From positions 24,293 to 88,292 of IMG/VR virus record IMGVR_UViG_3300045988_164842: a DNA stretch of 64,000 nucleotides; one strand, written 5' to 3'. The notes beneath the pieces are model-generated. The model worked only from the letters and a program-made list of their open reading frames with translations, was not told the DNA's origin and searched no databases. Position 1 is the stretch's first letter; each line of letters begins with the position of its first letter. This document shows, piece by piece, positions 2,309 to 63,716 of this stretch. The DNA is from a virus. The position numbers and the translations under genes are program-made.

Positions 2309-4142
2309 AGTATCTGTTCCTTTCTTCTTCTTGCCTTGTTTCCGAGAACTTCGAGATTCTTTTTAAATACCCGATAATTCTTGTAAGGTAGTCAAGGTCA
2401 TGACTTCCGCAAGCCTCGCAAGTACCTGTATATCGCTTGCTGATATGACCACATTCGTTGCAGATTGTATTTGGGACATTCACTGTTGCGTATGAACAAC
2501 CTGTTTTTATCATTACAAGCAAAAGTTTCTTGTACTGTTCGTAGCTCAAATGTTCATCGAGATTGATATGTACTGCACTTCCGCCGTCAAGATACTTTGT
2601 TACTCTTTCTCCGTGGAGCATAAGCTTATCAATCGGATTTGTGTGTGAGTCCTCTACAACATAAAAATACGAATTGTAACAATCTCTCGGTGCAAAATAA
2701 CCATCTTCTTTATCCCATTTTGCAAACTTCACGCCGAGGTTTTCAGCAGGGACAAGCTCTGTGTTGAACATGGTTTCATCAGTTTTATCCTTGACGTTTT
2801 CAGTATGGATAGGTTTCAGAATGCTTTCGATATACTCATAATACTTTTCGTTGAATGGGTCAATCTTTATTCCAAGATACTCAGCTCCCTCGACTAAGCC
2901 GTTAATACCAACAGTCAGATACTGCTTTTCGGGAAGAATAAATTCAGCGTCATAAATACCAATAAGCCCTGCATTTTTTAGGTCAGAAAGAATGCTGTTG
3001 TAAGCTGTAAGATATTTATGAACCCTCTGAGTTACTTCCTGTACCTTATTTGAAATTGTTTTGTAGTCAGTTTTCTCTCCTGACTGACTACTTGCAATTT
3101 GGACAATGCGGTTAATGTTGAGAGTGATAACACATTTACTACCTGTACATACTCCTCCTGCACCTAAAGTATATGAGAAGTCATTGCTTTGAATAGCGTT
3201 TCTGAGCCTACAGCAACTTGCCAGACTATCAACACTGTCACTTGTGTAGGTGAAGAAAGAATGTCCCTCTGAGTACATTTCTGCCGTGAAGTCTGCCCAT
3301 TCGCTATCGACAAAATCTTCTCCGTCGTTGAGTAGGTTCATAGTTTCGACAGGGAAAGTGAGTTCTTTTTTCAGTCTTTCTTTGTTAAACCACTTCATGA
3401 AAAGCTTCTGTAACCAGCTAACACTTGTCCAACAAGGCTTAGTACCATCAGGGAAAAAGAAGTTTTCAAAGATACCGTCAAAGTATGGTTTATCAAAATA
3501 AGCAATATTCCAGAAAACAGACTGAAAGTTTCTGGCACTGGCAGGGGTATTGATACTATAGATAACTTGCTGGAACTTGTCTGTAATTACTTCTTTAATA
3601 GATTTGTGGATTACGCCATTAACAACAACCTTATCAGCATTTTTATAGTAGTCCTGACCATAGTCTTTGCGAATAAAGTAGTCAAGATATGTAAGAAACT
3701 CAGGTGTAGAAACAGCTCCTGCAAGCTGAGAAGATACAGCATATACAAGATTGATAAAACCACCACAAAAACTATCAAGGTTCTTTGGCGGTTTCGATAC
3801 TCCGCCTAAAGTTTCAAGTCCGTGAATAAGGAACGGATACATAGTAATACTGGCACAATAAGGGTATAAAGGCTTTGTTTCGTCATGCTTGTAAATCAGG
3901 TGGTTTTCAAGATCTGATATGTAGTTAGTTGCTATATCTTCGCCGTAGATTTCTTTCAGCTTGTCATACATAAGCATACGAGAAATCATGATAGCATCTT
4001 TATTGAACAATTCTCCGTGCAGTGTTGTAATGTTTTTAAAGCTGACGTTTGCGTTGGAGTCATATTTACTTCCTGTGCTTGCGTTGACAGCGGTCTTGTA
4101 GCTTTCTATGAAGTCTTCATAGTGCCTGTATTCATCAAACAT
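2280..4142 (-). CDS. nrdD: anaerobic (class III) ribonucleoside-triphosphate reductase
   Basis: 620 aa; C-terminal CNECGH..CEACGS zinc ribbon followed by glycyl-radical motif RIIGYL. Confidence 0.92.
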   Translation of the reverse strand: MFDEYRHYEDFIESYKTAVNASTGSKYDSNANVSFKNITTLHGELFNKDAIMISRMLMYDKLKEIYGEDIATNYISDLENHLIYKHDETKPLYPYCASITMYPFLIHGLETLGGVSKPPKNLDSFCGGFINLVYAVSSQLAGAVSTPEFLTYLDYFIRKDYGQDYYKNADKVVVNGVIHKSIKEVITDKFQQVIYSINTPASARNFQSVFWNIAYFDKPYFDGIFENFFFPDGTKPCWTSVSWLQKLFMKWFNKERLKKELTFPVETMNLLNDGEDFVDSEWADFTAEMYSEGHSFFTYTSDSVDSLASCCRLRNAIQSNDFSYTLGAGGVCTGSKCVITLNINRIVQIASSQSGEKTDYKTISNKVQEVTQRVHKYLTAYNSILSDLKNAGLIGIYDAEFILPEKQYLTVGINGLVEGAEYLGIKIDPFNEKYYEYIESILKPIHTENVKDKTDETMFNTELVPAENLGVKFAKWDKEDGYFAPRDCYNSYFYVVEDSHTNPIDKLMLHGERVTKYLDGGSAVHINLDEHLSYEQYKKLLLVMIKTGCSYATVNVPNTICNECGHISKRYTGTCEACGSHDLDYLTRIIGYLKRISKFSETRQEEERNRYYAGTETFKV

Positions 4143-4341
4143 TTTTTACTCCTTTCAGGTATTCGAGAGCTTCACCATAATTCAGTTTGTTTCCGTCAAC
4201 TTCGAGAACGGGAACGTGCTTAATACCTTCTGCGACCATAACATCTTTATTGGAGATAATCTCATAAGAGAGATTTTTCTGGTTAAGCTTTGTCTTCAGC
4301 ACAGAGCAAAGAGGACAGTTCGTAGTGTAAAGTTTTATCAT
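4135..4341 (-). CDS. glutaredoxin/NrdH-like redoxin
   Basis: 68 aa; CPLC active-site motif near the N-terminus; VPVLEVDG; overlaps the nrdD start and thyX stop. Confidence 0.75.
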   Translation of the reverse strand: MIKLYTTNCPLCSVLKTKLNQKNLSYEIISNKDVMVAEGIKHVPVLEVDGNKLNYGEALEYLKGVKNV

Positions 4342-5270
4342 TCTTCATCATTCCTTTCAAGTTCTTTGAGTTTCGTCATATACCATTCAGCTTTCTTTAT
4401 ATCTTCTTCACCGTTCTTCTGCGTTGCTCTAAAACGATATTTGTAAGTGTTACAGCGACAGAAAGATTTAACAGCTTCAACGCCGAAGAGGGAAATCATT
4501 TCGTCAATACATTCATATTTCCCCTGATAATGCTGAGGGTGGTTGACATTATCTTTTACAGGTTGTGAGTTTGTTTCTTTATTGTCTGGCTTCTGAGAAC
4601 AAACTTCCGAAATAATATCCTGAACTTTCTGAGAAAAAAGGTCTTCAAAAAAGCAAGGGAAGCTTTCATCGAATAAGGACAGTATCTTTGTGGATAAACG
4701 TTGCATATCCGGGTGCGGTTTGCCTGTAACTCCAATGGCTCTTAATTTGAAAAAATTTCGCCAACTTCTGATATTCATTGTCATTACAAGCTTAGTAGCA
4801 GTAGCATTCGGCAGAACACCTCTTGCATCTTGAGCAGACATACCACTTCTCACAAATTTGAGGTATTGTTTTTCAGCGGTTGTAAGGAAATTTATATACT
4901 CATAGTATGTGTCTTCATCTGCGGTATCAAGCCAGTATGGCTTAACAAAGGAGATTTCAGAACCAAATTTTTCTTTTGAGTAGTTGCAATATCTTTGGCT
5001 CTGCTGTGAGTAACTCGCTATCCTGTGTCGAACAAGCTCGTGAGAAACTGCACGGTCAGTCACAATTTCCACTGTTATGTTGACGTGTTCAAGAGGACTT
5101 TCATGTCCTGTTGCTATCATTCGCTTGATAAAATTTTCGCAATCTTCTCTTGTAGCAGAGAGCTGTGAGTTGTAGCAAACTCTATACGCTTGTTCAATTG
5201 TGTCAAGCATTGAGACATAGCTTTCAGACGTAGGTGCGATAAGGTTTACGCTTGGTGAAATAAGCTGCAT
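4338..5270 (-). CDS. thyX: FAD-dependent thymidylate synthase ThyX with C-terminal DUF3310-like extension
   Basis: ThyX signature RHRIASYSQQSQRY. The C-terminal 70 aa (NHPQHYQGKYECIDEM..YKYRFRATQKNGEEDIKKAEWY) look like the DUF3310 family. Confidence 0.88.
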   Translation of the reverse strand: MQLISPSVNLIAPTSESYVSMLDTIEQAYRVCYNSQLSATREDCENFIKRMIATGHESPLEHVNITVEIVTDRAVSHELVRHRIASYSQQSQRYCNYSKEKFGSEISFVKPYWLDTADEDTYYEYINFLTTAEKQYLKFVRSGMSAQDARGVLPNATATKLVMTMNIRSWRNFFKLRAIGVTGKPHPDMQRLSTKILSLFDESFPCFFEDLFSQKVQDIISEVCSQKPDNKETNSQPVKDNVNHPQHYQGKYECIDEMISLFGVEAVKSFCRCNTYKYRFRATQKNGEEDIKKAEWYMTKLKELERNDEE

Positions 5271-21122: not shown

Positions 21123-21628
21123 TGCTATTTTTTTTGTAATAGGAGGTGAACAAGTGTTAACATTTTCCCAGAGCTGGATTGTACTACTCTAACTAATACA
21201 GTTTATGAACAATTTATGAATTAGTTAAGTTTCAACGATATTTACAATAATAGTAAAATAGATAACTTGTTAATATCTGTAAGACTTGCATAAGGAAAAT
21301 AATAGAAACAACGTGTAATACATATTACACGCGGTTTTAGGCGTATATGGGGCGTGTATTGAAATAACTGTAAAAATAAAGCAGCTTAGAGAACGATACA
21401 GGTATTCAAAAACTCATGTCTTATTTCTCAAATTGAAATCTCTACAAGTACTTCAAAATTTCCACAAATCAAATAAGATTTTTGAGATTATAAGAATAAA
21501 AAATCAGTCTGATACATTTAGGATTTAGGAGTAATCAGTATTGTAAAATGCGTAAAATAAATGATAACTCCGATGGCTTATGGGAAATATTGAATATATA
21601 ATCTTGTTATTATGTTGGCTCGTAAAGA

Positions 21629-21818
21629 GTAATGATTGCAGAGGTATTCAGGAAGTGAGATTAAGAACTATCAGTCTCAAAGGTCTTCCAGAATTGCAGG
21701 TAATATTTTTTTTAAAAAAATACAAATTGGACGTAACGAATTGCAGGAGACTAATAAAAGAGCAGGTCATATATTTCAAAAAATATCACACAAGAAAAGA
21801 AAGTAAGGATTGCAGAAG
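21629..21818. repeat. iteron-like dispersed repeats (4 copies of ATTGCAG core)
   Basis: GTAATGATTGCAGAGG (21629-21644), CCAGAATTGCAGGTAA (core 21693-21699), GTAACGAATTGCAGGAG (21733-21749), GTAAGGATTGCAGAAG (21803-21818). Confidence 0.6.
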
Positions 21819-22057
21819 TCTTTGGAGATTCAGTTCTTACAGGCTTATAAGCTGTGTGTTTGTGTTCTATCGGGAAGTTTTCTGTATCTTGTTTCTGCTT
21901 GGGATTTTTTCTTATGAAAAAATTTTTTCTTGCTTTTTCGGGAGGTTTGCAACATCGAGAGGTAAATTGTAAACTTTCTGTTAAGTATATTGACGTGATA
22001 AACCACGCATTTACGGGCTTTGTGAGCATACAAAAAGTTCCTTAATAATTTGGAAAC

Positions 22058-22086
22058 TTGAGTTTTTGTCAGTTTTGTGATATAAT
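22058..22086 (+). promoter_or_regulatory. strong extended -10 promoter for the rightward arm
   Basis: TTGAGT (22058-22063), 17 nt, TGATATAAT (22078-22086), about 190 nt upstream of the helicase ATG. Confidence 0.65.
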
Positions 22087-22282
22087 AAAAACAGACGAAG
22101 AGAAGAAGCTGACGGAATAGCAACAGAAGTTAGAGAGCTTCTTTTCTTACTTAATGGTTCGTAGGAGTAGAATATAAGGTATAGGTGTTTCCGGCACAAA
22201 AACCTCTACAACCAACGTATCTATGGGCTTTATGAGCATTTTTTTTAAAAACCCTCAGTGTCACATTTGAAAGGAGCATAAA

Positions 22283-23761
22283 ATGACCTATATTTCGCAA
22301 TTAAACTTCAAAAACAACATTGTTCCTCACAAACTCAATTTGCTTTATGCAGGTTGCGGAACAGGAAAGACAGAATGGGCAACAAGAAAAGTGTTTCAGG
22401 ATTTCCCTGACATCAAACCTTGCGAAACACTTCTCGTTGTTCCTAAAACGTGGATTGCAAAACAACAGGCTGAGAAAAGGAATGTCTACAGGTATGTCAG
22501 CTCAGAAAGAGCGATGTCAGATGAAAATAAGAAATGGCGTGACTACTGGAATGGTGTTTCTGATGAAGTTGACAACGAGAATGTTGTCAATGTTTTGACT
22601 TATGCAACCCTTATCAATATTCTTCGCAATCCAGAAAGCAACGGACGTTTACCTTTTGAGAGGATAAAGCTTGTAATCATTGACGAATGTCATTCTCTTT
22701 TTACTGAAACTTACATGACTGATTTGAATGTTATGAATCTTTGGCTTAACATGGCTATCAAAACAACAGATACTTTATTTATCGGTATGAGTGCAACTCC
22801 TATGCTTATAAAAGAGTATGCAGAAAAAGTAATTTGTAGTCCGGTAAATCAGGTCAACAAGGAAGTTATAATGAACTATACAGCAGAAAATCTTATTATA
22901 ACCGACAAAGAAACCATCCCGTATATGCTTCATAGCGGTTTTCTTACAGGCAGAACGCTAATAATGTGCAATTCCCTTGAAGAATGTAAATGTCTTTCGT
23001 ATGTTCTCAGTGACTCTGCTTATATTGTTAGTGAGTACAACAATGAATACGCACCAGACATGGCTGAGATTACAGATTATATTTTAAAGAACAACAGCAT
23101 TCCTGATACATTTAAAGGCAAGAAACTTAAAGTTCTTCTCTCTACGGCTGTCCTTAGAGAGGGGATTACTTTCAAAAAAGATTGTGGTATTGAAAATATA
23201 ATCTGTATGTCGGGTTGTGATGTAAACATTATTCAGATTGCTGGAAGATGCCGCTACAACATCAAAAATCTTATTGTCGTAAAGCCATTGACTATATCGT
23301 CTAATACAATTGATTACGTCAAAAAGAAGGAAATGCAGTTCAGGGATTTTTGTAAAGGCAGGTACACAGATAATGGTTGGTTCGATGGTATAAAACACAT
23401 TCTTTCTTTTAACGATATCAAGAAAATTCAGTATAAAACAAAGGAAGACTTCTTTTGTGGAGATACATATAACATACCAAAAAACAGCAAGGCATTATTA
23501 AAAAAATCAGTTGCTGAAAAATTAAATGCGTACATCGAAAGAAATTTAAAAGGGAAATTCGTAACAGAAAAAGAAAGAAAAGAAGCTGTCAAATTCATGT
23601 GTGAAAACTCAATTCTTTCTGGCGACCCTGACAAAATAACACCACAAGCCTTTTATAAATTCATTGAAACAAATACCCCATACACCTTAGAACCAGAACG
23701 AAAAAGAGTTGATGGCAGATTAAAACGTGGTTGCTCTTTTCGCAAGAAAAGGAGTAAATAA
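22283..23761 (+). CDS. SF2 (DEAD/DEAH-box type) helicase
   Basis: Walker A GCGTGKTEW, DEAH-like box VIIDECHSL; AAAGGAG SD. Confidence 0.8.
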   Translation: MTYISQLNFKNNIVPHKLNLLYAGCGTGKTEWATRKVFQDFPDIKPCETLLVVPKTWIAKQQAEKRNVYRYVSSERAMSDENKKWRDYWNGVSDEVDNENVVNVLTYATLINILRNPESNGRLPFERIKLVIIDECHSLFTETYMTDLNVMNLWLNMAIKTTDTLFIGMSATPMLIKEYAEKVICSPVNQVNKEVIMNYTAENLIITDKETIPYMLHSGFLTGRTLIMCNSLEECKCLSYVLSDSAYIVSEYNNEYAPDMAEITDYILKNNSIPDTFKGKKLKVLLSTAVLREGITFKKDCGIENIICMSGCDVNIIQIAGRCRYNIKNLIVVKPLTISSNTIDYVKKKEMQFRDFCKGRYTDNGWFDGIKHILSFNDIKKIQYKTKEDFFCGDTYNIPKNSKALLKKSVAEKLNAYIERNLKGKFVTEKERKEAVKFMCENSILSGDPDKITPQAFYKFIETNTPYTLEPERKRVDGRLKRGCSFRKKRSK

Positions 23762-24234
23762 TGACTGCGGTACGATTATTTCAGGAAAATGAAGGTCTTG
23801 TTCACTATGTGCTCAATCACTACACACTGAAGCCTTTTTCTTATAAGCTCGGTTATACCTATGAAGACTGGACTTCCGTAGGACGTGAAGGGCTGTGGAA
23901 AGCTTCTAAAGAGTACGTGAGCAAAGATACGACATATGCATTCAGCACAATAGCTTGTAACCACATTCAGAACAACATACGGCAAGAACTAAGAAAGAAA
24001 AGAATTGCCTTGTGTCCTTTAGAAGAAAACATGATAATCCCAAAAGATAGCTTTGACGAAACACTCTTTTCAGTCAAAGAGATTGTAGGCGAAAAAGAGT
24101 ACAATATTTTACTGGACTACTACGGTCATAAATACACTTTCGAGTATTTGAGTGAGAAATACGACATGACAAACGCTCAACTCAAAAAACTTTTGAACAC
24201 ACTTCCGAGAAAAATCAGAAAGGAGTTCTCTTGA
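23761..24234 (+). CDS. sigma-70-family sigma factor (regions 2 and 4 only)
   Basis: ENEGLVHYVLNHY..EDWTSVGREGLWKASKEY..YAFSTIACNHIQNNIRQELRK (region 2) and a C-terminal HTH (region 4). The start overlaps the helicase stop (TAATG). Confidence 0.75.
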   Translation: MTAVRLFQENEGLVHYVLNHYTLKPFSYKLGYTYEDWTSVGREGLWKASKEYVSKDTTYAFSTIACNHIQNNIRQELRKKRIALCPLEENMIIPKDSFDETLFSVKEIVGEKEYNILLDYYGHKYTFEYLSEKYDMTNAQLKKLLNTLPRKIRKEFS

Positions 24235-54767: not shown

Positions 54768-56216
54768 ATGAAATACTTTAAACTTGCGGATAGCCCACAG
54801 TATGACGATACCAGTGTAAAAGCGGATATTTCAGCCTTGCAGACCGGAAAAGTAGATAAAGCTGATGGCATGAGCCTGATTGAAGATGCCGAAAAGCAAA
54901 GACTTTCTACTGTCGCAAATTATGACGATACAGAAATCAAGGCTGACATTGCAAAATGTGCCACAAAAGATGTTGCGACTACCACAAAAAACGGGTTGAT
55001 GTCAGCGACCGACAAAAAGAAACTTAACGGTCTTGCGACTGTAGCAACCACAGGAAGCTATAACGATTTGAAAGATAAACCGAATACGTCCGACTACACG
55101 GTTTTCATGCAGGAAACACAGCCAACTCAAGACGGACTGTGGATAAAGGGGAGCAAAAAAGATTTCAGATTTACACAATGTGATTTAAGAGTACCCAATA
55201 ATCCTATATTATTATCAACCCCTGAAGTTTTAAGCGGGACAGGATATTGTTCTTCTATCTCGTTTGATAAATATATATATTTTTTTGGAAAATCTCTTTC
55301 TAGTAATACTAACGAAATATCAGGCATTGCTAAATTTGACACTACTACAAATACAGGTGAAATTCTTTCTACTAAGTTACCTCATTCAATTATATACCCA
55401 GTAACTGCGATATCTGGTGGGTATATATATATATTTGGCGGTCGAGAAGAATATGGCGATTATTCTTCAGGTACGAATACTATTTTCAGATTCGACCCTG
55501 TTACAGAAAGTTGTATACAACTTTCTGTAACATGCCCCATTTCTTTTTCATGCGGATGTGCTTTTACAATCAATGGTATTATATACATATGTCCTGGACT
55601 ACGTAAATTAAACACACCTTGTAGAGTGATTTGGAAATTTAATCCCAAAGCAAATACTTGTGTAGCTTTGGAATCTCCTCCTTCCTCATTTTCATATGAC
55701 GGAAATGCCTGTGTTGTTGATGGTAAAGGATACGTTTTTTGGGATGATGGTAAAATTATCGAATTTGACCCTGATACAGAAACAAGTAGAACTCTTAATA
55801 GTACTGTTCGTTCTTCCTCAACAATAGCCGCTATAAATGATGTGGTTTATATTTTTGGTGGTAATCCATCTTCATCCAATTTAGAAATTTATTATTTCAA
55901 ACCTAACGAAGATGTCTTGAAAAAACTCACAAACACCATGCCTACATTACCTACCGGTTCTTATTATTCATATCTTTCAAGCCTCACTGTAGGTAAAGAT
56001 ATTTATATATTTAAAGGTAATGTATTTGTAAAAATGCTCCCTCTTGTATACGAACAGTTTAACGGATATTATATAAAGCTTTCTTCATCTGGGAAAATGA
56101 CTAAAATTTCAGACAACTTTATTGCTCAAGTTGAAGGTGTGCATTCTGGTGTAAACTGTGATGACAAAATCGAAGCATATTCTATAATTGATGGCGTGGC
56201 AACAAAAATCGAATAG
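54768..56216 (+). CDS. tail fibre with Kelch-like beta-propeller C-domain
   Basis: N-terminal fibre repeats (DDTSVKADISALQTGKVDK; DDTEIKADIAK; GLMSATDKKKLNGL). C-terminal repeated YIYIFGG / VVYIFGG / IYIFKG blades. Confidence 0.7.
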   Translation: MKYFKLADSPQYDDTSVKADISALQTGKVDKADGMSLIEDAEKQRLSTVANYDDTEIKADIAKCATKDVATTTKNGLMSATDKKKLNGLATVATTGSYNDLKDKPNTSDYTVFMQETQPTQDGLWIKGSKKDFRFTQCDLRVPNNPILLSTPEVLSGTGYCSSISFDKYIYFFGKSLSSNTNEISGIAKFDTTTNTGEILSTKLPHSIIYPVTAISGGYIYIFGGREEYGDYSSGTNTIFRFDPVTESCIQLSVTCPISFSCGCAFTINGIIYICPGLRKLNTPCRVIWKFNPKANTCVALESPPSSFSYDGNACVVDGKGYVFWDDGKIIEFDPDTETSRTLNSTVRSSSTIAAINDVVYIFGGNPSSSNLEIYYFKPNEDVLKKLTNTMPTLPTGSYYSYLSSLTVGKDIYIFKGNVFVKMLPLVYEQFNGYYIKLSSSGKMTKISDNFIAQVEGVHSGVNCDDKIEAYSIIDGVATKIE

Positions 56217-56226
56217 AGGTGGCAAA

Positions 56227-56622
56227 ATGAACAAAGATATACAGTTTTTCTCAGCATTACTCGGGGCAATCATCGGATTTCTTTTCGGGAAGATTGACGG
56301 CTTGCTTATAGCCTTACTGGTCGTGATAGTCCTCGACTACATTACGGGTCTGGTTCACGCAAAAATCAACAAGTCCCTTTCCTCAGCTGTGGGCTTCAAG
56401 GGGCTTGCGAAAAAAGGTTTCATTCTCGCAATCGTCATAGTCGGGAACATCGTAGACACTCAAATTCTCGGTAGTGGTTCAGTCTTCCGTAGTGCTGTAA
56501 TCTGCTTCTATCTCGCAAATGAAAGCATTTCCATTCTGGAAAACGCAGGGAATATAGGAGTACCGCTACCGAAAAAACTTAAAGATATATTAATTCAACT
56601 CAGAGAGGAGAACGATAAATGA
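56227..56622 (+). CDS. holin (phage_holin_4_1 / TcdE-like family)
   Basis: Three hydrophobic segments; LDYITGL..KGLAKKGFIL..ANESISILENAG signature. ATG 56227 follows AGAGGTGG. Confidence 0.8.
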   Translation: MNKDIQFFSALLGAIIGFLFGKIDGLLIALLVVIVLDYITGLVHAKINKSLSSAVGFKGLAKKGFILAIVIVGNIVDTQILGSGSVFRSAVICFYLANESISILENAGNIGVPLPKKLKDILIQLREENDK

Positions 56623-57347
56623 AGAAAGGAATTGACGTTTCAGTACATCAGGGTATTATCGACTGGTCAAAAGTAAAAGGCCAAGTTGATTTCGCCATTA
56701 TCCGTGCAGGTATGGGCAATACCGCAAGTCAGAGGGATAAGCAGTTTCTCAACAACATCAATGGCTGTATTAAATACGGTATACCGTATGGTTTCTATTG
56801 GTTCTCTTACGCACACACGGAAGCAGAAGCAATCAAGGAAGCTAAAGCGTTCCTGGAAGTTATCAAGCCGTACAAGCCTGAATACCCTCTTGCTTTCGAT
56901 TTCGAGTACGAGAGTTACGACTATGTAAAGAGGGTTCATAACATCACTCTCAGCAAGGAACAACTCACAAAGAACGCAAAAGCTTTCCTGAAAACACTTG
57001 AACAGGCAGGATATTACACGATTAACTACTCGAACCTTGACTACCTCAACAACCGCTTTACGCCTGAAATTACTTCACGGTTCGACCTGTGGTATGCACG
57101 TCCAAACGTTTCTCAGCCTGATAAAAAGTGTGGCATATGGCAGTATTCATGGGCAGGAAAAGTCGCAGGCATAAGTACGGACGTTGACATGAACTACGCC
57201 TATAAAGATTACCCGGCAATCATTAAGTCAGCAGGGCTTAACGGCTTCGCAAAGACTACCACACCTAAGCCTGAAACAAAGAAAACCGCCACTGTAACTG
57301 TGACGGTTGATGGAAAAACGTATAAAGGAAATGTTCAGGAAATCTGA
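56619..57347 (+). CDS. GH25 muramidase endolysin
   Basis: KGIDVSVHQGIIDWSKVK..VDFAIIRAG, the typical GH25 N-terminus; overlaps the holin stop. Confidence 0.88.
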   Translation: MKKGIDVSVHQGIIDWSKVKGQVDFAIIRAGMGNTASQRDKQFLNNINGCIKYGIPYGFYWFSYAHTEAEAIKEAKAFLEVIKPYKPEYPLAFDFEYESYDYVKRVHNITLSKEQLTKNAKAFLKTLEQAGYYTINYSNLDYLNNRFTPEITSRFDLWYARPNVSQPDKKCGIWQYSWAGKVAGISTDVDMNYAYKDYPAIIKSAGLNGFAKTTTPKPETKKTATVTVTVDGKTYKGNVQEI

Positions 57348-58088
57348 TTAGCTTAAAAGCGATTTGAGTTTGTCAATGCCTTCGTCAAAATAACGGAAAG
57401 TGTCAACTTCTTTAGAACAGTATTTTGCTTTATCGTGATACCAAATTCCGTATTCTTCCGTTTTCAGATTGTAAAGGTTCGCAAGTTTGCCGATTTTCAT
57501 AGCTGATACGCCAAGGATTTTTCCTACTTCCGTTGCTGAGTACGTCTTACGTTCGACTTTCGGAAGTGGAAGAACAGGTTCGCCTGCAAGAGCTTCGGCG
57601 GACTTTGCGACAAGTATGTTCTTGTATTCAGGTGAAAGCGTTTCGATGTTTGAAAGCTTGAGAAACATTTTCGCCATTTTGGTTCTTGCCTTTATAAGCT
57701 TGACCTCATCTGAGTTGTTTTCCGATGGCTGAATTTGTTTCTGGACTTCGGCAATTTCTTTTGTTTTGAAGTAACTGTTGACGAGTTCACGCTGAACTTT
57801 CCATGCAAGATTATCCGTGAATGACTTTACGAGCATGAGATAACCGCTTTCGGTAAGTAAGACTAAACCATTTGGAGCGATTGCGTTAAATTCGTTTTTG
57901 GCTTCGTACGAATTTCGTACGAAGTAATCTTCGCCTTCAATGAAACGTTCTTTGTTTGCGTTGAACGTTCTTCTTGCCGTTCCATCTGGTCTTCCGTGTG
58001 CAGTGTCGATGTCTTTAAAGGTTACAACTCTCTGATTGTTGTAAACCTTAATTGTGAGTTCGTGTTCGTTGATTGTGATTGTGTTCAT
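57348..58088 (-). CDS. ORF6N-domain antirepressor-like protein
   Basis: ITINEHELTIKVYNNQRVVTFKDIDTAHGRPDGTARRTFNANKERFIEGEDYF (ORF6N/KilA-N-like); GAAAGGA SD. Confidence 0.75.
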   Translation of the reverse strand: MNTITINEHELTIKVYNNQRVVTFKDIDTAHGRPDGTARRTFNANKERFIEGEDYFVRNSYEAKNEFNAIAPNGLVLLTESGYLMLVKSFTDNLAWKVQRELVNSYFKTKEIAEVQKQIQPSENNSDEVKLIKARTKMAKMFLKLSNIETLSPEYKNILVAKSAEALAGEPVLPLPKVERKTYSATEVGKILGVSAMKIGKLANLYNLKTEEYGIWYHDKAKYCSKEVDTFRYFDEGIDKLKSLLS

Positions 58089-58107
58089 TCTTTTCGTTCC
58101 TTTCGTC

Positions 58108-58136
58108 TTGACTTTTCCGAAAGGTTTTGCTATAAT
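58108..58136 (+). promoter_or_regulatory. perfect consensus promoter of antisense RNA 1
   Basis: TTGACT (58108-58113), 17 nt, TATAAT (58131-58136). The -35 lies 4 nt from the SD of the opposite-strand ORF6N gene. Confidence 0.7.
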
Positions 58137-58142
58137 GGATTT

Positions 58143-58211
58143 GTAAATTCCTTTCGGATTACGTTTATGAGTTTGCTATGACCGACCAAAGTTAAGCAAA
58201 CTCATTTTTTT
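58143..58211 (+). ncRNA. about 69-nt cis-antisense RNA candidate (sar-like)
   Basis: Predicted TSS about 7 nt after the -10. 11-bp perfect terminator stem ATGAGTTTGCT (58167-58177) / AGCAAACTCAT (58195-58205) followed by T7. The 3' arm covers the RHH stop codon. Confidence 0.6.
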
Positions 58212-58378
58212 AATTCAGAATACAATTTATCTATGCCACGTCTTATTGTTTGAACTCTTGTTTCTGAATTGTTCTCGGCAACCTTATCCAATTTTTGAAG
58301 CATTTCCTTATCAAGTCTTACAGCAAGCTGAGTAGACTTAGGGTTTTTAGATTTCGGTCTGCCAATCTGTGCATTCAT
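58202..58378 (-). CDS. ribbon-helix-helix (Arc/CopG-like) repressor
   Basis: 58 aa; MNAQIGRPKSKNPKSTQLAVRLDKEMLQKLDKVAE; ATG 58378 follows GAGAGGTG. Confidence 0.7.
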   Translation of the reverse strand: MNAQIGRPKSKNPKSTQLAVRLDKEMLQKLDKVAENNSETRVQTIRRGIDKLYSELKK

Positions 58379-58391
58379 TGTATCACCTCTC

Positions 58392-58441
58392 TTTTTGAAT
58401 ACCACTAAGTGTATTATATATCATGGTATTCAAAAAGTCAA
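58392..58441 (-). promoter_or_regulatory. RHH gene promoter embedded in a 13-bp perfect inverted repeat (operator)
   Basis: Minus-strand TTGACT (58441-58436), 17 nt, TATAAT (58418-58413). IR TTTTTGAATACCA (58392-58404) / TGGTATTCAAAAA (58424-58436). Confidence 0.7.
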
Positions 58442-58630
58442 TATCTTTTGCAAGAAAAATGCAATAAAAAAAAGCAAAGCTGATTTTGTGCATAATGTTA
58501 TAAGCTGTCACCTCACAAAATAAATAGTTGAACGCTACAATGCTTTTTATTTCGCCGTACAGCCACGTTGTTAAGCTTTATAGGTTTTTTCGCAAAACTA
58601 TACCCTTAGACTTTAATGGCTCGTACAATT

Positions 58631-58672
58631 AAAAATAAGAGCATTTACGATTATTACACAGTAAATCGTGCT
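58631..58672 (-). terminator. bulged hairpin + T-run after the 171-aa gene
   Basis: AGCATTTAC (58640-58648) pairs with GTAAAT-CG-TGCT (58661-72), followed on the minus strand by CTTATTTTT. Confidence 0.45.
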
Positions 58673-58724
58673 TCACTTTGGAAAGCTTAAATTTGAGTTC
58701 TCCTATTTCTACCGCAAGGTTGTG

Positions 58725-59240
58725 TTACTTTAACCAAGTTTGTATCAGTTTATCTATGAACAATGCTTTTTGTATTCCATTCTCTGAGTTGACAATACGA
58801 CTTCTCAGAATTACGGATTTTGGCAATGGCTTTTGAGCTTTATATGATGTGCCGATAAAAAGTTTTTCTGCGTATCTATAGAAGTATTCAGCAGAACATT
58901 TTTGTAAGAGTTCTTCAAGTGTGCTATTCTCGCAATCGACCTTAGAAGCTATGTACCTTGCAACGTCTTCTTTGGTTAAGTCCTTGTCAGCTTTCACCAT
59001 TTCAATAAAGTCCTCTGGTGTATCTACAAGCCTTATGCCGTTAAAGTATGGGTCGTATTCGCATACTTTAAGCCATGTATCTCCGTTTGTAGGAAACATA
59101 TGTGTTGAAAAGTTTACGCCTGAATTGTGAAGTTTGACAACGCACCCTCTTATCTTTTCTATAGTTCCGTTGCAGAACCAAAGACCAATACGGCTTTTAT
59201 GAGCATAAGAGCTTCCGATAATAACTACGTTTTCATTCAA
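58725..59240 (-). CDS. hypothetical protein (171 aa)
   Basis: TTG 59240 lies 6 nt after GAGGTG (the track GTG 59249 is inside the SD); no motif recognised. Confidence 0.6.
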   Translation of the reverse strand: MNENVVIIGSSYAHKSRIGLWFCNGTIEKIRGCVVKLHNSGVNFSTHMFPTNGDTWLKVCEYDPYFNGIRLVDTPEDFIEMVKADKDLTKEDVARYIASKVDCENSTLEELLQKCSAEYFYRYAEKLFIGTSYKAQKPLPKSVILRSRIVNSENGIQKALFIDKLIQTWLK

Positions 59241-59254
59241 AAAAATCACCTCGC

Positions 59255-59283
59255 TTGACTTATTGGTTTGCTTATGGTATAAT
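59255..59283 (+). promoter_or_regulatory. perfect consensus promoter of antisense RNA 2
   Basis: TTGACT (59255-59260), 17 nt, TATAAT (59278-59283). The -35 lies 2 nt from the SD of the opposite-strand 171-aa gene. Confidence 0.7.
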
Positions 59284-59289
59284 ATTTAT

Positions 59290-59358
59290 GAATTGCGGGA
59301 GGCGACTTCGGTCAACCCCTAAGCGTACGGCATGAGTGTTGTACGCTTTATTTTTTTT
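59290..59358 (+). ncRNA. about 69-nt cis-antisense RNA candidate 2
   Basis: 5' hairpin with UUCG loop (GAC-TTCG-GTC). Terminator AAGCGTAC (59321-59328) / GTACGCTT (59341-59348) followed by T-run. Overlaps the last codons and stop of the 191-aa gene. Confidence 0.6.
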
Positions 59359-59894
59359 ACTTCGCAATTAATCTCTATGAATTTATCTTCGTTGTATGTG
59401 TAGTCTTGCTTTTCAAGGTTATAGACTGAAAGATAAATCTTTTTGAAGCAGGTATCGTAAATTTCTTCAAGGAGTTTTTTATCTATGGGATTCCATTGAG
59501 AATTTTCAATTACTTTCTCAAATAGGTCGAATTCTTCTTCTGTGACGAAAACAAACAGCTCTATGTTTTTGCGTTTATGCTTTTCATGTTTTCTCTTAAT
59601 AACTTTTGAGATGTTCTGAACGCTATATTCTATTGTAGACAAAAGACTTCCAAACTCGCTTCCGAACGTCTGAGTGTCTTTGTTCCAGCCATAAGCTTCC
59701 CTTAAAATCTTTTCATCTGATGAACGTGAATGTCCGCAACCATCTGGATAATCATTTGTTTTATGTCTTCTATAAGCTCCTAAGTCAAGCTTATCCAAAA
59801 TTTCTTGTCTTTTCATTTCTTTTTTATAAGCCTTTTCGGTATCTTCATCATCACAGAACAAACCATTATTGTGGTTCGTCTGAGTTATTTCCAC
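59319..59894 (-). CDS. hypothetical protein (191 aa)
   Basis: GTG start 6 nt after GGAGGA; Lys/Glu-rich; no motif recognised. Confidence 0.6.
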   Translation of the reverse strand: MEITQTNHNNGLFCDDEDTEKAYKKEMKRQEILDKLDLGAYRRHKTNDYPDGCGHSRSSDEKILREAYGWNKDTQTFGSEFGSLLSTIEYSVQNISKVIKRKHEKHKRKNIELFVFVTEEEFDLFEKVIENSQWNPIDKKLLEEIYDTCFKKIYLSVYNLEKQDYTYNEDKFIEINCEVKKIKRTTLMPYA

Positions 59895-59986
59895 AAATCC
59901 TCCGTTGGCATGTTATAAGAAATATTAAAAATATGAAACAATGTTCAAAGTTTTTATAAAATATTCTTTTTATTGTTCAATGTAAT

Positions 59987-61219
59987 TTACGCTACATTTA
60001 CTACAAACGGATGTAACACGCACCCTCTATCCCATTTTATTGGGACTACTTTCTTTAAAATCTGATAAGCACCATTCAAGTCAGCGTTTATTGTAATGCC
60101 TGAATTGGAAACAAACAACCCTCTGTGAACACGTCTTGATTTATTGTAATTCTCTTTTACAGGTTCTTCATTGTCAATGAAACTCGTACCGCTTGTATAG
60201 CTTTCTTCGGTTGTAACAACTGCTATACCATATTCTTCTGCTTTGTACTCTATCATCTCAATAAGTCTTGCAAAAGGTATCTGAACAAAATGCTGATTTA
60301 TTCTCTTTGAAAGGTTTACATTTTGTTTCCATTCTTTATTTTTGCCAATAATGATTGTGCAAATATCGTGTTTCAAACAGTAGTCAATGATGTATTTGCT
60401 TGCTTTATGTAAATAATCATCAATCTTAGAATTTCTCTTTTCCGTCAATCTGTCCATTCTTTTTGAATATTCACTGTTGTTCATTCTTTTAGCGATTTCT
60501 CTATAGTGACTGATTTTCTTATTGTAATGTTGATTGATAGATTTTAAGGGCTTTCCATTGATTATAAAAGCTTTTTCGCCTGCATTATTGCACACTGTTG
60601 CAAGATTATCTACACCGATATCAATGCCTATATATCTTTGATTATCTGATTTCTTTTCCGGAACATTGATGTTATATACCAACTCTGCAATAATTCTGTT
60701 CCTTTTTGGAATAAATCTGATTTGTTGAAAGGAAGCAAAGTTTTCTTTCTTTATAAATCTTGGTATAAGTGTAAAACCTTTAAATGTTTTAGGAAAATGA
60801 AGACTACCGTTTCTTAATTTGCAGTTCTGGTTAGTTAAGATTAGAAGAAAGTTTCCGTTTTTCTTTAAATATTTAGGAAGCTTTGGTCTTCCTAAATATT
60901 TATCTTTGTTCTTACTCCAGTCTTTGATACTTGCAAAGAACGCTTTCCAGTTACTATCAAGCACTCTCAATATCTGTTGAGCCGACTGTGCTGTAGGCAT
61001 TTCTTTGTAGTCGGGATATTCTTCATCGGCTTTTAGAAGCTTGTCAAGTTCCGCATAACGTATCCATTTACTATTATCTTGACTTGTGAAAGCCTGCCTG
61101 ACAAGATAGTTCGCATGATTGTACAGGTTTTTAGATTTGTGGCAAAAATCAATCAGCATAGAAAAGAAAGCATTTGAAGATTTAATTATATGCTTTTCAA
61201 CTCTTGTCTGAATCGACAT
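59987..61219 (-). CDS. tnpB: TnpB (IS200/IS605-IS607 OrfB, RuvC-like RNA-guided nuclease family)
   Basis: 410 aa; RuvC motifs IGIDIGVDNLA (D), VVTTEESYTS (E), INADLNGAYQI (D). The usual CxxC..CxxC zinc finger between E and D is absent. Confidence 0.85.
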   Translation of the reverse strand: MSIQTRVEKHIIKSSNAFFSMLIDFCHKSKNLYNHANYLVRQAFTSQDNSKWIRYAELDKLLKADEEYPDYKEMPTAQSAQQILRVLDSNWKAFFASIKDWSKNKDKYLGRPKLPKYLKKNGNFLLILTNQNCKLRNGSLHFPKTFKGFTLIPRFIKKENFASFQQIRFIPKRNRIIAELVYNINVPEKKSDNQRYIGIDIGVDNLATVCNNAGEKAFIINGKPLKSINQHYNKKISHYREIAKRMNNSEYSKRMDRLTEKRNSKIDDYLHKASKYIIDYCLKHDICTIIIGKNKEWKQNVNLSKRINQHFVQIPFARLIEMIEYKAEEYGIAVVTTEESYTSGTSFIDNEEPVKENYNKSRRVHRGLFVSNSGITINADLNGAYQILKKVVPIKWDRGCVLHPFVVNVA

Positions 61220-61802
61220 CTTGTAACACCTCTTTTATTTTTTGAATTTTTCTTTTGCTGTACAGTTTTATAGAATAACAGTGCAACAGAGAAACAATTT
61301 CCTCGAAAATTTCTTGACTATCAAGTTTTTCCGAACCAACCTCACTCATAACAATAATTTCGCAATTGTATTTTTTAAACAAATGATAAAACAAATCAAA
61401 ACCAACTCTCGAAAGTCTGTCTTTATAGGTAATTACAATGCGTTCTACTTTGTTATCAATAATGTCGTCAAGCATTTCAAAGAAACTATTTCTTTTTTCA
61501 AAATTTATTCCGCTTGCTACATCTGAGTAAACTCCTGAAATCTTATATCCATTTGTAAAGCAAAACTGTTTGAGTAGTTCTATTTGATTTTCAAGGTCGT
61601 GTTTTTGCTTAGATGTCGAAACTCTTGCATAAATGTATGTTTTTCTTTTCAAATCCTTATTTAAGAATAAATACACGCTGTTTTCATCATAATCATATCT
61701 GCCATTCGGAAGTAATTCAACTTTTATTATTTCGTCTTTTACATATTTCGTAAGTGTTTGTCGTGAAATTCTAAGCAATTTTAAAACTTCATTTGCTTTC
61801 AT
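61197..61802 (-). CDS. tnpA: IS607-type serine recombinase transposase
   Basis: N-terminal MerR-like HTH (LLRISRQTLTKYVK), catalytic YARVSTSKQKHDLENQ, 201 aa. Confidence 0.85.
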   Translation of the reverse strand: MKANEVLKLLRISRQTLTKYVKDEIIKVELLPNGRYDYDENSVYLFLNKDLKRKTYIYARVSTSKQKHDLENQIELLKQFCFTNGYKISGVYSDVASGINFEKRNSFFEMLDDIIDNKVERIVITYKDRLSRVGFDLFYHLFKKYNCEIIVMSEVGSEKLDSQEIFEEIVSLLHCYSIKLYSKRKIQKIKEVLQDVDSDKS

Positions 61803-61913: not shown

Positions 61914-63716
61914 TTAATAATTATCCCACCATTTCTTCAAGGCTTCGTTTTCTACCGAAGTCTGCGGTACTGGGTGTGTTTGCATGGCTTCCCACAGCTT
62001 GTAAAATACTGCATCACCGCCCATTACGGATGATTGAACATTCTTTATGTTTATAGTCTGATACGCTCCAGAAAGTTCAGTCTTCATAGATTCAAGAGAT
62101 ACTCCTGCGTTTTCATAGTAGTCGCAGATTTTGTCAACCTGTTCGTCTGTAAGTCTCCAGTACAGGTCAAGAGGTATCTGTGTCACCATGTCAGCCACAG
62201 AAACTTTAGAACGCCTCTTTGCTTCTTTGCTGTACCTTATTCTTTCAGCTTCAGTACAGCAAGTGTCGGGGGCATCGTAGTCAAATAAATCTGTATCGAA
62301 ATTTGACTCCCAGTCAAGGAAACCTTTCTTTCTTACCACTGGGGGGGTCGCATATTCCACTTTGCGTGGATATTTTGATACAGTCGCAGTGGTGTTTACA
62401 GCATTTGTAGCAGTATCACCTGTAGCAAAGATATTCGGCATATCAACCCCTATCTTAGTCAACAGGTTTCTGACCACGCCTGCAAGGTAGTTAGCCGGGG
62501 CTTTTACTTCGTCTTTGGAAGCACAGAACACGCCCCATGCCTGTTTGAGAATGTCTTCTCTAAGATACTCAAACACGCCTCTGACATCAAAGACGTTAAG
62601 AACCTTTGCTATTTCTTTACTCGTAAGGGCTTTTCTATATGTTTCAGGGACATAAGCAGGTATGTCTGATGATGTACTTGTCGGTACAGGTGTAGAAATC
62701 GCCGTAGATTCAGGCTTGATAGGCGTTGTCATTACTGGTACTGGGGTAGGAGTAGCTACTGCCATCACAGGCTCCGGAGTAATTGGCGGTAAAACATCAG
62801 CAACTTTTTGCACTGTTTCTGCTACAGGGTTTATAATTTTTTCTTCAAGCCACTCACCGAGTTTAAAAGTCAGGCTCGCAGTCGCTCCGTTGTTTGTCGG
62901 TATCGGGAAATCAGACATCTGTTCTTCTACTTTCTTAGCTATCTCTTCTTGTTGTTTAAGTACGGAAGCGGAAGCAAAGAACATAATCTTTTCCTCTCTC
63001 TTGGTTCTTTTGCGGTCATATTCCCCGGCTTCATATGCAAGAGCTTTCTTTGTAGGGATAAGCTCAAAATCATTTTTATGCATATGGATTGATATACTTG
63101 TAAATTTTTTTCTGTCATAGTTTCTTTGAATATCAATCGAGAACCTTCCTTGTTGTGCTATTTCTCTACAGGCTTTACTCAGACAGACTACAAAAAATAC
63201 CCGAGGGATTTTGTAATTTACACCTAAAATGTCTTGAAGCTGATTGACACTATAGGTTTTTTCGCCTTTCTTCGCCCACTGAGTAAGGATTTCATAAAGG
63301 CGTATAGCTGGCAGTGAAGTATACCATCTGATTTCTTCCAGAGGGTATTTCACATAACCGCCTTTAAGGTCTGTAATATGTGTCAATATTTCATCAGAAA
63401 ACTGTGCTTTAATGTAATCACCATCAAAACTTATCGCTTTCCACACTTTTATTTTTTGTCCGTCCTGTAATGTGAAACACTGGTTGCGACTGTTCTCAAC
63501 CGCTGTCAAAAGATATCCATTTCCTCTGTCTTTGGTCGGGAAAATCTTTTTGAACTCGTCCGTATTGATGTAGATTTCTCCTTTTGTTTTTTCTATGTTC
63601 ATAGGATTGATTTTCGCTAAAACGTACAGGAACAGCCTGTATTCAGTCAAGCTCATGCTTTGACTTGCTTGCGTTAAAGCAACACTTTTCGATACTGTCA
63701 GTTTCTTTTCTTTCAT
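61914..63716 (-). CDS. Rep_3-type replication initiator with Pro/Thr linker and DnaD-like C-terminal region
   Basis: N-terminus KSVALTQASQSMSLTEYRLFLYVLAKINP (Rep_3 hallmark). Linker VATPTPVPVMTTPIKPESTAISTPVPTSTSS. C-terminal APANYLAGVVRNLL resembles the DnaD/DnaB_2 motif. GGAGG SD. Confidence 0.75.
   Translation of the reverse strand: MKEKKLTVSKSVALTQASQSMSLTEYRLFLYVLAKINPMNIEKTKGEIYINTDEFKKIFPTKDRGNGYLLTAVENSRNQCFTLQDGQKIKVWKAISFDGDYIKAQFSDEILTHITDLKGGYVKYPLEEIRWYTSLPAIRLYEILTQWAKKGEKTYSVNQLQDILGVNYKIPRVFFVVCLSKACREIAQQGRFSIDIQRNYDRKKFTSISIHMHKNDFELIPTKKALAYEAGEYDRKRTKREEKIMFFASASVLKQQEEIAKKVEEQMSDFPIPTNNGATASLTFKLGEWLEEKIINPVAETVQKVADVLPPITPEPVMAVATPTPVPVMTTPIKPESTAISTPVPTSTSSDIPAYVPETYRKALTSKEIAKVLNVFDVRGVFEYLREDILKQAWGVFCASKDEVKAPANYLAGVVRNLLTKIGVDMPNIFATGDTATNAVNTTATVSKYPRKVEYATPPVVRKKGFLDWESNFDTDLFDYDAPDTCCTEAERIRYSKEAKRRSKVSVADMVTQIPLDLYWRLTDEQVDKICDYYENAGVSLESMKTELSGAYQTINIKNVQSSVMGGDAVFYKLWEAMQTHPVPQTSVENEALKKWWDNY

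Follow-up and report, generated by a model that had tools for sequence, protein, structure and literature searches.

In the immI region of phage P22 (arc-sar-ant), the gene of a ribbon-helix-helix (RHH) repressor comes first and its product represses its own promoter, the antirepressor gene lies downstream on the same mRNA, and the promoter of a convergent small antisense RNA, sar, is found at the junction of the two genes. The sar RNA, which is reportedly 68-69 nt long, covers the ribosome-binding site (RBS) of ant. In their immI unit (c4-icd-ant), phages P1 and P7, which are able to live as plasmids, have an antirepressor under small-RNA control. Pairing of sar with the ant mRNA prevents translation (PMC13397905), and P22 immI as a whole is an add-on, an 'ant moron', within or beside the late genes (PMC2629481). 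On the plasmid pMV158 (copG-RNAII-repB), the 48-nt RNAII is encoded between copG and repB and inhibits translation, pairing with the mRNA directly ahead of the repB initiation signals (PMC4485353). Here we describe a locus of related layout at positions 57,348-58,441 of a 64,000-nt stretch of viral DNA, referred to below as the window, which is the final 64 kb of the 88,292-bp IMG/VR virus record IMGVR_UViG_3300045988_164842, a record with direct terminal repeats. A gene for a small protein that models as an RHH fold, a predicted antisense RNA (asRNA) of about 69 nt and an ORF6N antirepressor-like gene (ant) make up a three-part cassette at this locus. It is a control unit of about 400 bp and a widespread new variant of known circuit logic. 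We consider it roughly two-thirds probable (about 0.68) that the cassette controls the antirepressor-type gene through autorepression by the RHH protein together with the asRNA; in the mode of action that we prefer, refolding of the mRNA leader would hide the Shine-Dalgarno (SD) sequence, probably with cleavage of the RNA as well.

Comparison with described systems

As in P22 immI, the gene order of the window cassette is RHH repressor, convergent small antisense RNA (here predicted) and antirepressor in one operon: the RHH gene comes first and would repress its own promoter, the antirepressor-type gene lies downstream on the same mRNA, and the antisense promoter is placed where the two genes meet. 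Arc ranks with the best structural matches to the window RHH model, and relatives of the window cassette lie amid tail genes, which is like the siting of immI. A sequence-only reading of this DNA had proposed that the locus follows P22 immI logic but is built from unrelated parts. The likeness in logic is supported by about 20 cassettes of recurrent geometry, by their antirepressor-type cargo and by the RHH fold model, and the unrelatedness of the parts by Pfam, PDB sequence and Rfam searches, in which there were zero family-level matches to P22 immI. Unlike sar, the predicted window RNA (58143-58211) misses the ant SD (58097-58105) and ends 45 nt upstream of it, in agreement with what that reading had said. 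Moreover, a second, Mnt-like repressor was not seen in the window system, and the window Ant is of the ORF6N type in a phage whose host is a Gram-positive-type gut Firmicute. The c4 RNA of P1 and P7 also differs from the window RNA, in that it is processed from the transcript of its own target and acts on upstream sites, in a unit without an RHH repressor.

Because the predicted window RNA stops short of the SD, the geometry of pMV158 is closer to that of the window than is the geometry of P22 sar. In both pMV158 and the window, an RHH autorepressor gene is followed by the regulated gene on one mRNA, and the countertranscript is intergenic, has its own intrinsic terminator and is complementary to a region just upstream of the initiation signals, not to the signals themselves; CopG is also among the structural matches of the window protein. 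However, the regulated gene is a replication initiator in pMV158 and an ORF6N/antirepressor-type gene here, and RNAII consists of a single-stranded 5' tail and one hairpin, whereas the window RNA of about 69 nt would consist of a 5' hairpin and a terminator hairpin. Neither sequence nor Rfam similarity to pMV158 was found. Attenuation of the pT181, pIP501 and pAMbeta1 type resembles the window leader in having mutually exclusive hairpins, where pairing of the upstream arm lets the downstream hairpin form; unlike in such systems, the downstream hairpin of the window (arms B and C, described below) is followed by an A-rich stretch and not by a U-run. The Rfam families of countertranscribed and antisense RNAs (ctRNA_pT181, ctRNA_pND324, ctRNA_pGA1, sar and others) gave zero matches at E <= 1 in the region 56500-60000. 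Overall, the comparison shows that phage immI logic and plasmid copy-control logic converge on the same design. No published description of an RHH/antisense/antirepressor cassette in Gram-positive phages was found.

Layout of the cassette

The operon is read on the minus strand from a promoter at 58413-58441 that matches the consensus at 11 of 12 positions (−35 TTGACT at 58441-58436, a 17-nt spacer, and −10 TATAAT at 58418-58413). It contains the gene of the 58-amino-acid (aa) RHH protein (58202-58378, with an ATG start and the SD GAGGTGA at 58389-58383), a spacer of 113 nt (58201-58089) and the 246-aa ORF6N gene ant (57348-58088). The ant product matches Pfam ORF6N at 2.7e-14 and PHROG 1726 'anti-repressor' at 2.8e-65, and PHROG 63 'anti-repressor Ant' at only 2.5e-6. 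A sequence scan of the sense strand of the spacer gave no promoter (best score 7/12) and no terminator, and the hairpin at the end of the RHH gene (H1, −13.6 kcal/mol) is not a terminator on the minus strand, since a U-tract is absent there; for these reasons the RHH and ORF6N genes are regarded as one co-transcribed operon.

The plus strand of the spacer carries the antisense promoter, Pas (58108-58136), with TTGACT at 58108-58113, 17 nt, and then TGcTATAAT (−10 at 58131-58136, extended −10 TG at 58128-58129). From the predicted start at 58143, the putative asRNA would extend to 58211; its 5' hairpin (58143-58162) would be separated by a linker of 4 nt from the terminator hairpin (58167-58205), which a U7 tail follows. 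The intrinsic terminator (58167-58211) has an 11-bp stem (58167-58177/58195-58205), a 17-nt loop and a T7 run (58205-58211); its 3' arm holds the RHH stop codon (TGA, the complement of 58202-58204), the terminator also overlaps the two C-terminal Lys codons, and H1 is this same hairpin on the minus strand. The ant SD lies beyond the predicted RNA. The spacer of 113 nt followed by an ORF6N antirepressor-type gene, the opposite-strand promoter TTGACT-17-TATAAT and the 11-bp stem with T7 over the RHH stop codon had all been pointed out in the sequence-only reading and are confirmed, with the extended −10 as an addition. A perfect inverted repeat around the RHH promoter had also been reported there; it is present and perfect, with arms of 14 bp and not 13 bp.

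A conserved antisense promoter and a predicted two-hairpin RNA

A 70-nt RNA from 58143 has a predicted folding energy of −20.2 kcal/mol (z = −4.3 against dinucleotide shuffles), and a promoter with an 11/12 match on the plus strand of the spacer arises in about 0.3% of shuffles. Related cassettes were gathered in three ways, by the RHH protein, by the operator pattern and by exact-protein look-ups. In 19 of 23 distinct spacers the opposite strand carries a promoter that scores 10/12 or better, usually with TGn, while the sense strand does so in 2 of 23. The shuffle p was <= 0.05 for the antisense promoter in all 19; both spacers that reach 10/12 on the sense strand are tandem-RHH arrangements. 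Across the cassettes, the antisense −10 sits 60-79 nt from the RHH stop codon, and every one of the predicted RNAs (22/22; 63-82 nt) folds into a 5' hairpin that a short linker joins to a long terminator hairpin, and the latter abuts a T-run overlapping the end of the RHH gene. The antisense feature is also found with far more divergent RHH proteins (loci L001, L004, L021b, L056b and L086b). The predicted asRNA sequences are largely unalignable across cassettes, and a MAFFT alignment of all of them reached 41% column identity, too little to derive one consensus structure for the whole family; conservation was assessed instead by anchor-based sub-alignments and per-sequence statistics. The features of the asRNA unit are not due to chance by these sequence statistics, and the conservation strongly suggests that the RNA is expressed and that selection maintains its two-hairpin fold.

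With a permissive Rfam scan of 56500-60000, the only match at E <= 1 was PK-repBA, the pseudoknot of the repBA leader of IncB plasmids, which is under antisense control, below its gathering score. This match coincides with the spacer (58109-58211, minus strand) at 22 bits and E = 0.097, and it was treated as a chance match because the score is far under the gathering score of 45. An exact-pattern search of IMG/VR for Pas gave 0 matches, and when the 1.2-kb locus was compared with phage GenBank by blastn in distant mode, three short matches of no relevance were all that came up. The possibility that the small RNA encodes a peptide was rejected, its sole ATG opening just a 4-codon frame.

A loop motif, YUUUGGUNGG (e.g. 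AACUUUGGUCGGU), is kept in most cassettes in the loop of the asRNA terminator hairpin, while in the window (58178-58194) and in L010 and L041 it is on the mRNA strand, as though the hairpin had been flipped. The motif contains a YUNR-type U-turn, so that a kissing-loop start of the pairing is plausible.

Alternative hairpins in the mRNA leader

The antisense −10 of every cassette lies between the arms of an inverted repeat, of which one is in the spacer between −35 and −10 and the other just past the asRNA start. In the window, this repeat is the mRNA leader hairpin H2 (58116-58158, minus strand), of which arm A (UCCGAAAGG, 58158-58150) is within the asRNA target and arm B is CCUUUCGGA (58124-58116). 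Read as a hairpin of the sense mRNA, H2 is significant in all of the 20 cassettes analyzed in this way (mean z = −5.0), and the window helix has an energy of −11.6 kcal/mol (z = −6.8). Between the window and L082/L086b, 3 of the 9 H2 pairs are changed on both sides with pairing kept. In a 12-sequence subfamily, 72% of the H2 cells are paired compared to 40-57% with the partners slid, and 7 pairs (13 cells) show compensatory double changes, a number matched by 1 of 500 shuffles. Conservation of this kind points strongly to selection on the leader hairpin.

An alternative hairpin, H3 (58097-58124, minus strand), can form between arm B (58124-58118) and arm C (CGAAAGG, 58105-58099), which is the ant SD, with the complement of the Pas −35 in its loop. 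Arms A and C make up a 9-nt direct repeat (58148-58156 and 58097-58105). The window B:C helix has an energy of −8.9 kcal/mol and is included in the minimum-energy fold of the full-length leader. In the nascent transcript, A:B is the minimum-energy fold until C is transcribed; once C is transcribed, a local hairpin of A together with B:C prevails (−30.0 vs −26.7 kcal/mol). In relatives, H3 is likewise downstream, encloses the complement of the −35 and takes in the SD, and in L006, L009, L010, L021 and L033 a U-run follows the downstream hairpin with the SD, directly ahead of the start codon. In the window, an A-rich stretch follows H3 and the 9 nt ahead of the ATG hold 0 T, and transcription attenuation is therefore unlikely here; any effect would be translational.

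When the asRNA target was constrained to be unavailable, the predicted SD accessibility never rose in any cassette, and its mean, 0.34 without the constraint, was 0.20 with it (Wilcoxon p = 0.003). In about half of the cassettes (L009, L010, L032, L033, L056b, L068/69 and L086b) the drop was large.

The small RHH protein and its putative operator

The 58-aa protein matches PHROG 876 'transcriptional repressor' at 6e-14 and PHROG 7325 'CopG-like' at E = 0.004. A Pfam search gave nothing above the cut-off, and a profile search of PDB sequences gave nothing relevant, with no similarity to Arc; hhalign placed the protein on CopG in the correct register at a non-significant probability of 2.9%. An AlphaFold model that drew on 28 relatives (pLDDT 83) has an extended segment at residues 17-23 and helices at 24-36 and 41-57, which is the N-terminal strand followed by two helices of the RHH fold. 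The top Foldseek matches of this model are nearly all RHH proteins (PutA DNA-binding domain, MatP, Arc, CopG, ParG, TacA and AmrZ), with an rmsd of 1.1-2.3 Å over about 39 residues and a target-normalized TM-score of 0.6-0.8 for the top RHH matches, including Arc, CopG, ParG and AmrZ; the E-values are weak (0.4-2) because the protein is small. The protein thus models as an RHH fold. A profile search at E <= 1e-5 gave a family of 2,956 clusters (90% identity), the origin of which is mostly gut metagenomes and the metagenome-assembled genomes (MAGs) of Lachnospiraceae and Oscillospiraceae. One relative is named 'BrnA antitoxin' by NCBI, yet a toxin partner is absent from every context examined, and a role as an antitoxin was rejected.

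The putative operator is a perfect inverted repeat (58391-58437) with 14-bp arms, CTTTTTGAATACCA and TGGTATTCAAAAAG, that brackets the −10 and overlaps the −35. The arms (58391-58404 and 58424-58437) are 100% complementary and 19 nt apart; one overlaps the −35 and the promoter spacer, and the other spans the transcription start and the leader. In the relatives L006-L022 the RHH-ant promoter is kept, and in relatives at 72-79% protein identity both the promoter and the arms TTTTTGAATACCA and TGGTATTCAAAAA are kept while the bases between the arms vary. Identical arms go with a shared recognition strand, STQLAVRLD; where the recognition strand is another one, other repeats are found at the same position, as in L004 (TTTTTGTCAC and GTGACAAAAA) and in L086b (direct repeats of TGGGCTACA). 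Zero further copies of the operator half-site occur in the 88-kb genome. Since the arms co-vary with the protein and the half-site is unique, the arrangement bears the signature of a dedicated autorepressor, and we infer from the predicted fold, the operator geometry and this co-variation that the RHH protein binds the putative operator and represses its own operon.

Related cassettes and their cargo

As judged by sequence features, cassettes of this kind recur in many phages of gut Firmicutes, with parts that differ in sequence. In nearly all of them the cargo is an antirepressor-type gene (ORF6N, Bro-N, Bro-N+KilAC(ANT), Bro-N+ORF6C, AntA+ANT or Rha), either directly downstream or past one or two small open reading frames (ORFs), and the cassettes are found amid tail genes, beside integrases and at prophage ends. 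The Pas region of the window is homologous to those of L004, L082 and L086b, in which the next gene is a homologue of ORF6N (L004), or small ORFs come first and genes of the ORF6N or Bro-N type after them. As the RHH genes of these loci differ while their Pas regions are homologous, the modules must recombine within the spacer.

In tandem cassettes (L040:1501-1950, L046:1501-2000 and L086:1201-1850), a second promoter, operator and RHH gene of different specificity lies directly behind the first, and in L040 and L046 the antisense promoter has been lost from the first spacer. Some called ORFs (L039:1715-1987, L012:4322-4630 and similar ones) begin in the spacer and run in-frame into the small downstream gene; that of L039 has its ATG in the H1 loop with GGAGGA ahead of it. 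These ORFs may be artefacts, or real N-terminal extensions translated across the asRNA target.

Genomic setting and neighboring features

The structural and lysis genes on the plus strand finish with a holin gene (56188-56622) and a GH25 endolysin gene (56619-57347), and the minus-strand gene block that ends in the cassette converges on them. The endolysin stop (57345-57347, plus strand) directly abuts the ORF6N stop (57348-57350, minus strand) with zero intergenic bases, and the sole terminator-like hairpin for the minus strand is within the endolysin gene (57308-57284); from this arrangement it follows that late transcripts may enter ant in the antisense direction.

A second convergent unit (59255-59358, plus strand) is present between the minus-strand ORFs 59894-59319 and 59249-58725. 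It has TTGACT-17-TGgTATAAT (59255-59283) and then a 12-bp stem with a T-run (59321-59358) over the stop of the 191-aa ORF, and its predicted RNA of about 69 nt has a folding energy of −23.8 kcal/mol (z = −3.2). It is not a simple copy of the first unit, because its upstream gene is not an RHH gene and an H2-type repeat is absent (dG −2.3, p = 0.87). An element of insertion sequence (IS) type (59987-61802, minus strand), with a TnpB-like 410-aa ORF and a 201-aa ORF, is placed between the cassette region and a 600-aa ORF (61914-63716).

The putative targets of Ant could be the four HTH_3 (XRE/CI-like) genes of the genome (C1:3526-3936, 4013-4603, 21898-22335 and 22784-22945); a domain search gave no S24 peptidase domain anywhere in the genome. 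At least five further Bro-N/Rha-type antirepressor-like genes (C1:4834-8185, 21229-21888 and 23424-24164) are found, like the HTH_3 genes, outside the window in the upstream part of the record.

Discussion

In the mechanism that we favor, the strong promoter would give rise to a single mRNA with the RHH and ORF6N genes, and a dimer of the RHH protein on the 14-bp repeat that overlaps this promoter would shut off its own operon. The convergent near-consensus promoter in the spacer would give rise to the RNA of about 69 nt, for whose existence the promoter, the terminator and the conservation of the fold in about 20 diverged cassettes all argue, and every base of this RNA would be able to pair with the mRNA, over a stretch that starts at the last RHH codons and stops 45 nt upstream of the ant SD. 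By analogy and from the folding predictions, pairing of the two RNAs would lower the synthesis of Ant: the asRNA would take up H1 and the 5' arm of H2 (A), arm B would thereby be set free to pair with the SD (C), and the entry of ribosomes would be blocked. The duplex of about 65 bp would probably also be a target for a double-strand RNase, so that the ant cistron would be cut from the 5' part of the mRNA, and polymerase interference possibly contributes. The net result would be a brief burst of Ant upon entry into a naive cell followed by tight silencing, and incoming phages that bring the same cassette would be subject to this silencing in trans as well. The conserved alternative hairpins of the leader speak for SD-hiding refolding no less strongly than for the transcriptional interference or processing that the sequence-only reading had considered likely.

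Several points weigh against this mechanism. The asRNA, its ends and its effect are predictions from sequence, and for ORF6N and Bro-N proteins the term antirepressor comes from annotation alone. The predicted SD accessibility of the window at equilibrium is about equal without and with the asRNA (0.56 vs 0.53), and a switch must therefore be kinetic, with co-transcriptional folding that traps A:B. The closest spacer homologues, L004 and L082, do not have the B:C complementarity, and occlusion of the SD by arm B is thus not universal. Direct pairing of the asRNA with the SD by way of the 9-nt direct repeat was tried and rejected, being no better than in shuffles (p = 0.085). In addition, the repeat that flanks the −10 showed no G-U strand bias (11 vs 9) in a test of an RNA against a DNA role, and it may act at the DNA level.

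This last result is in line with a reading in which there is no RNA gene at all, the repeat at the −10-like box being a DNA operator at which another phage regulator blocks read-through into ant, and the stem and T-run being a by-product of Lys-Lys-stop. The T-run does double as the codons AAA AAA, and the sequence of the repeat varies among cassettes as phage-specific operators do. However, the hexamers, the spacing of 17-18 nt and mostly the TG are kept amid this divergence, and the antisense strand alone scores (19/23 vs 2/23); the arms of 9-17 bp with bulges and the loops of 9-25 nt are typical of RNA hairpins, not of protein operators, and the terminator stems co-vary completely among cassettes and always abut the T-run. 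We therefore regard a pure DNA operator as highly improbable.

If the asRNA is real, its product could still be of minor importance, with transcriptional interference dominating: polymerases at Pas, or firing from it, would block or hit those coming from the RHH promoter, so that ant would be under-transcribed and the RHH gene fully transcribed. Pas is near-consensus with an extended −10, it precedes the ant start codon by 45 nt within the operon, its position just upstream of the SD of the downstream gene is conserved, and the asRNA falls short of that SD, all of which would suit interference. Yet interference alone would leave unexplained the two-hairpin fold that is conserved in 22/22 diverged cassettes, the efficient terminator at a fixed place and the compensatory changes in the leader, and pMV158, which has the same geometry, acts through its RNA in trans (PMC4485353); dominance of interference is in our view quite unlikely. 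Decay of the mRNA is an unlikely main cause as well, though one that is compatible with the favored mechanism and not exclusive of it. According to this explanation, RNase III would cut the duplex of about 65 bp, ant would lose a stabilizing 5' part and undergo 5'-3' exonucleolytic decay, and refolding would be secondary. In Firmicutes, RNase III cleaves sense/antisense duplexes, such as those of type I toxin-antitoxin pairs. The full complementarity of about 65 nt takes in the RHH stop codon, and the window fold hides about half of the SD with or without the asRNA, so that regulation needs another step; on the other hand, the sequence holds nothing that is specific to decay, and the conserved alternative hairpins H2 and H3 downstream of the duplex would be left unexplained. 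Refolding of the leader, probably together with cleavage, remains the mode of action that we prefer.

A wider generalization, to which we would give clearly less than even odds, is that the RHH gene and a structured countertranscript of about 65-80 nt make up a portable front end, very widespread though absent from catalogues, by which antirepressor genes are gated in gut-Firmicute phages. The operator and the RHH recognition strand, the asRNA and H1-H3 would then diversify fast and define immunity-specificity groups, much like plasmid incompatibility groups. In such a front end, a three-hairpin leader would flip and the RBS would not be covered, and the YUUUGGUNGG hairpin could be on either strand (mRNA in this phage and in L010, asRNA elsewhere).

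Whether a temperate phage lies dormant or kills its host is decided by antirepressors, and prophages with uncharacterised switches abound in gut Firmicutes. The cassette is absent from Rfam and from the genome annotation, and it is experimentally tractable, with thousands of variants (2,956 RHH clusters, and the RNA gene in 19/23 sampled spacers). If the proposed mechanism is true, the asRNA would represent a new antisense-RNA family, the diverged cassettes would offer natural orthogonal repressor/antisense pairs for Gram-positive synthetic biology, and the circuit would explain how many phages limit the synthesis of antirepressor to the moment of entry.

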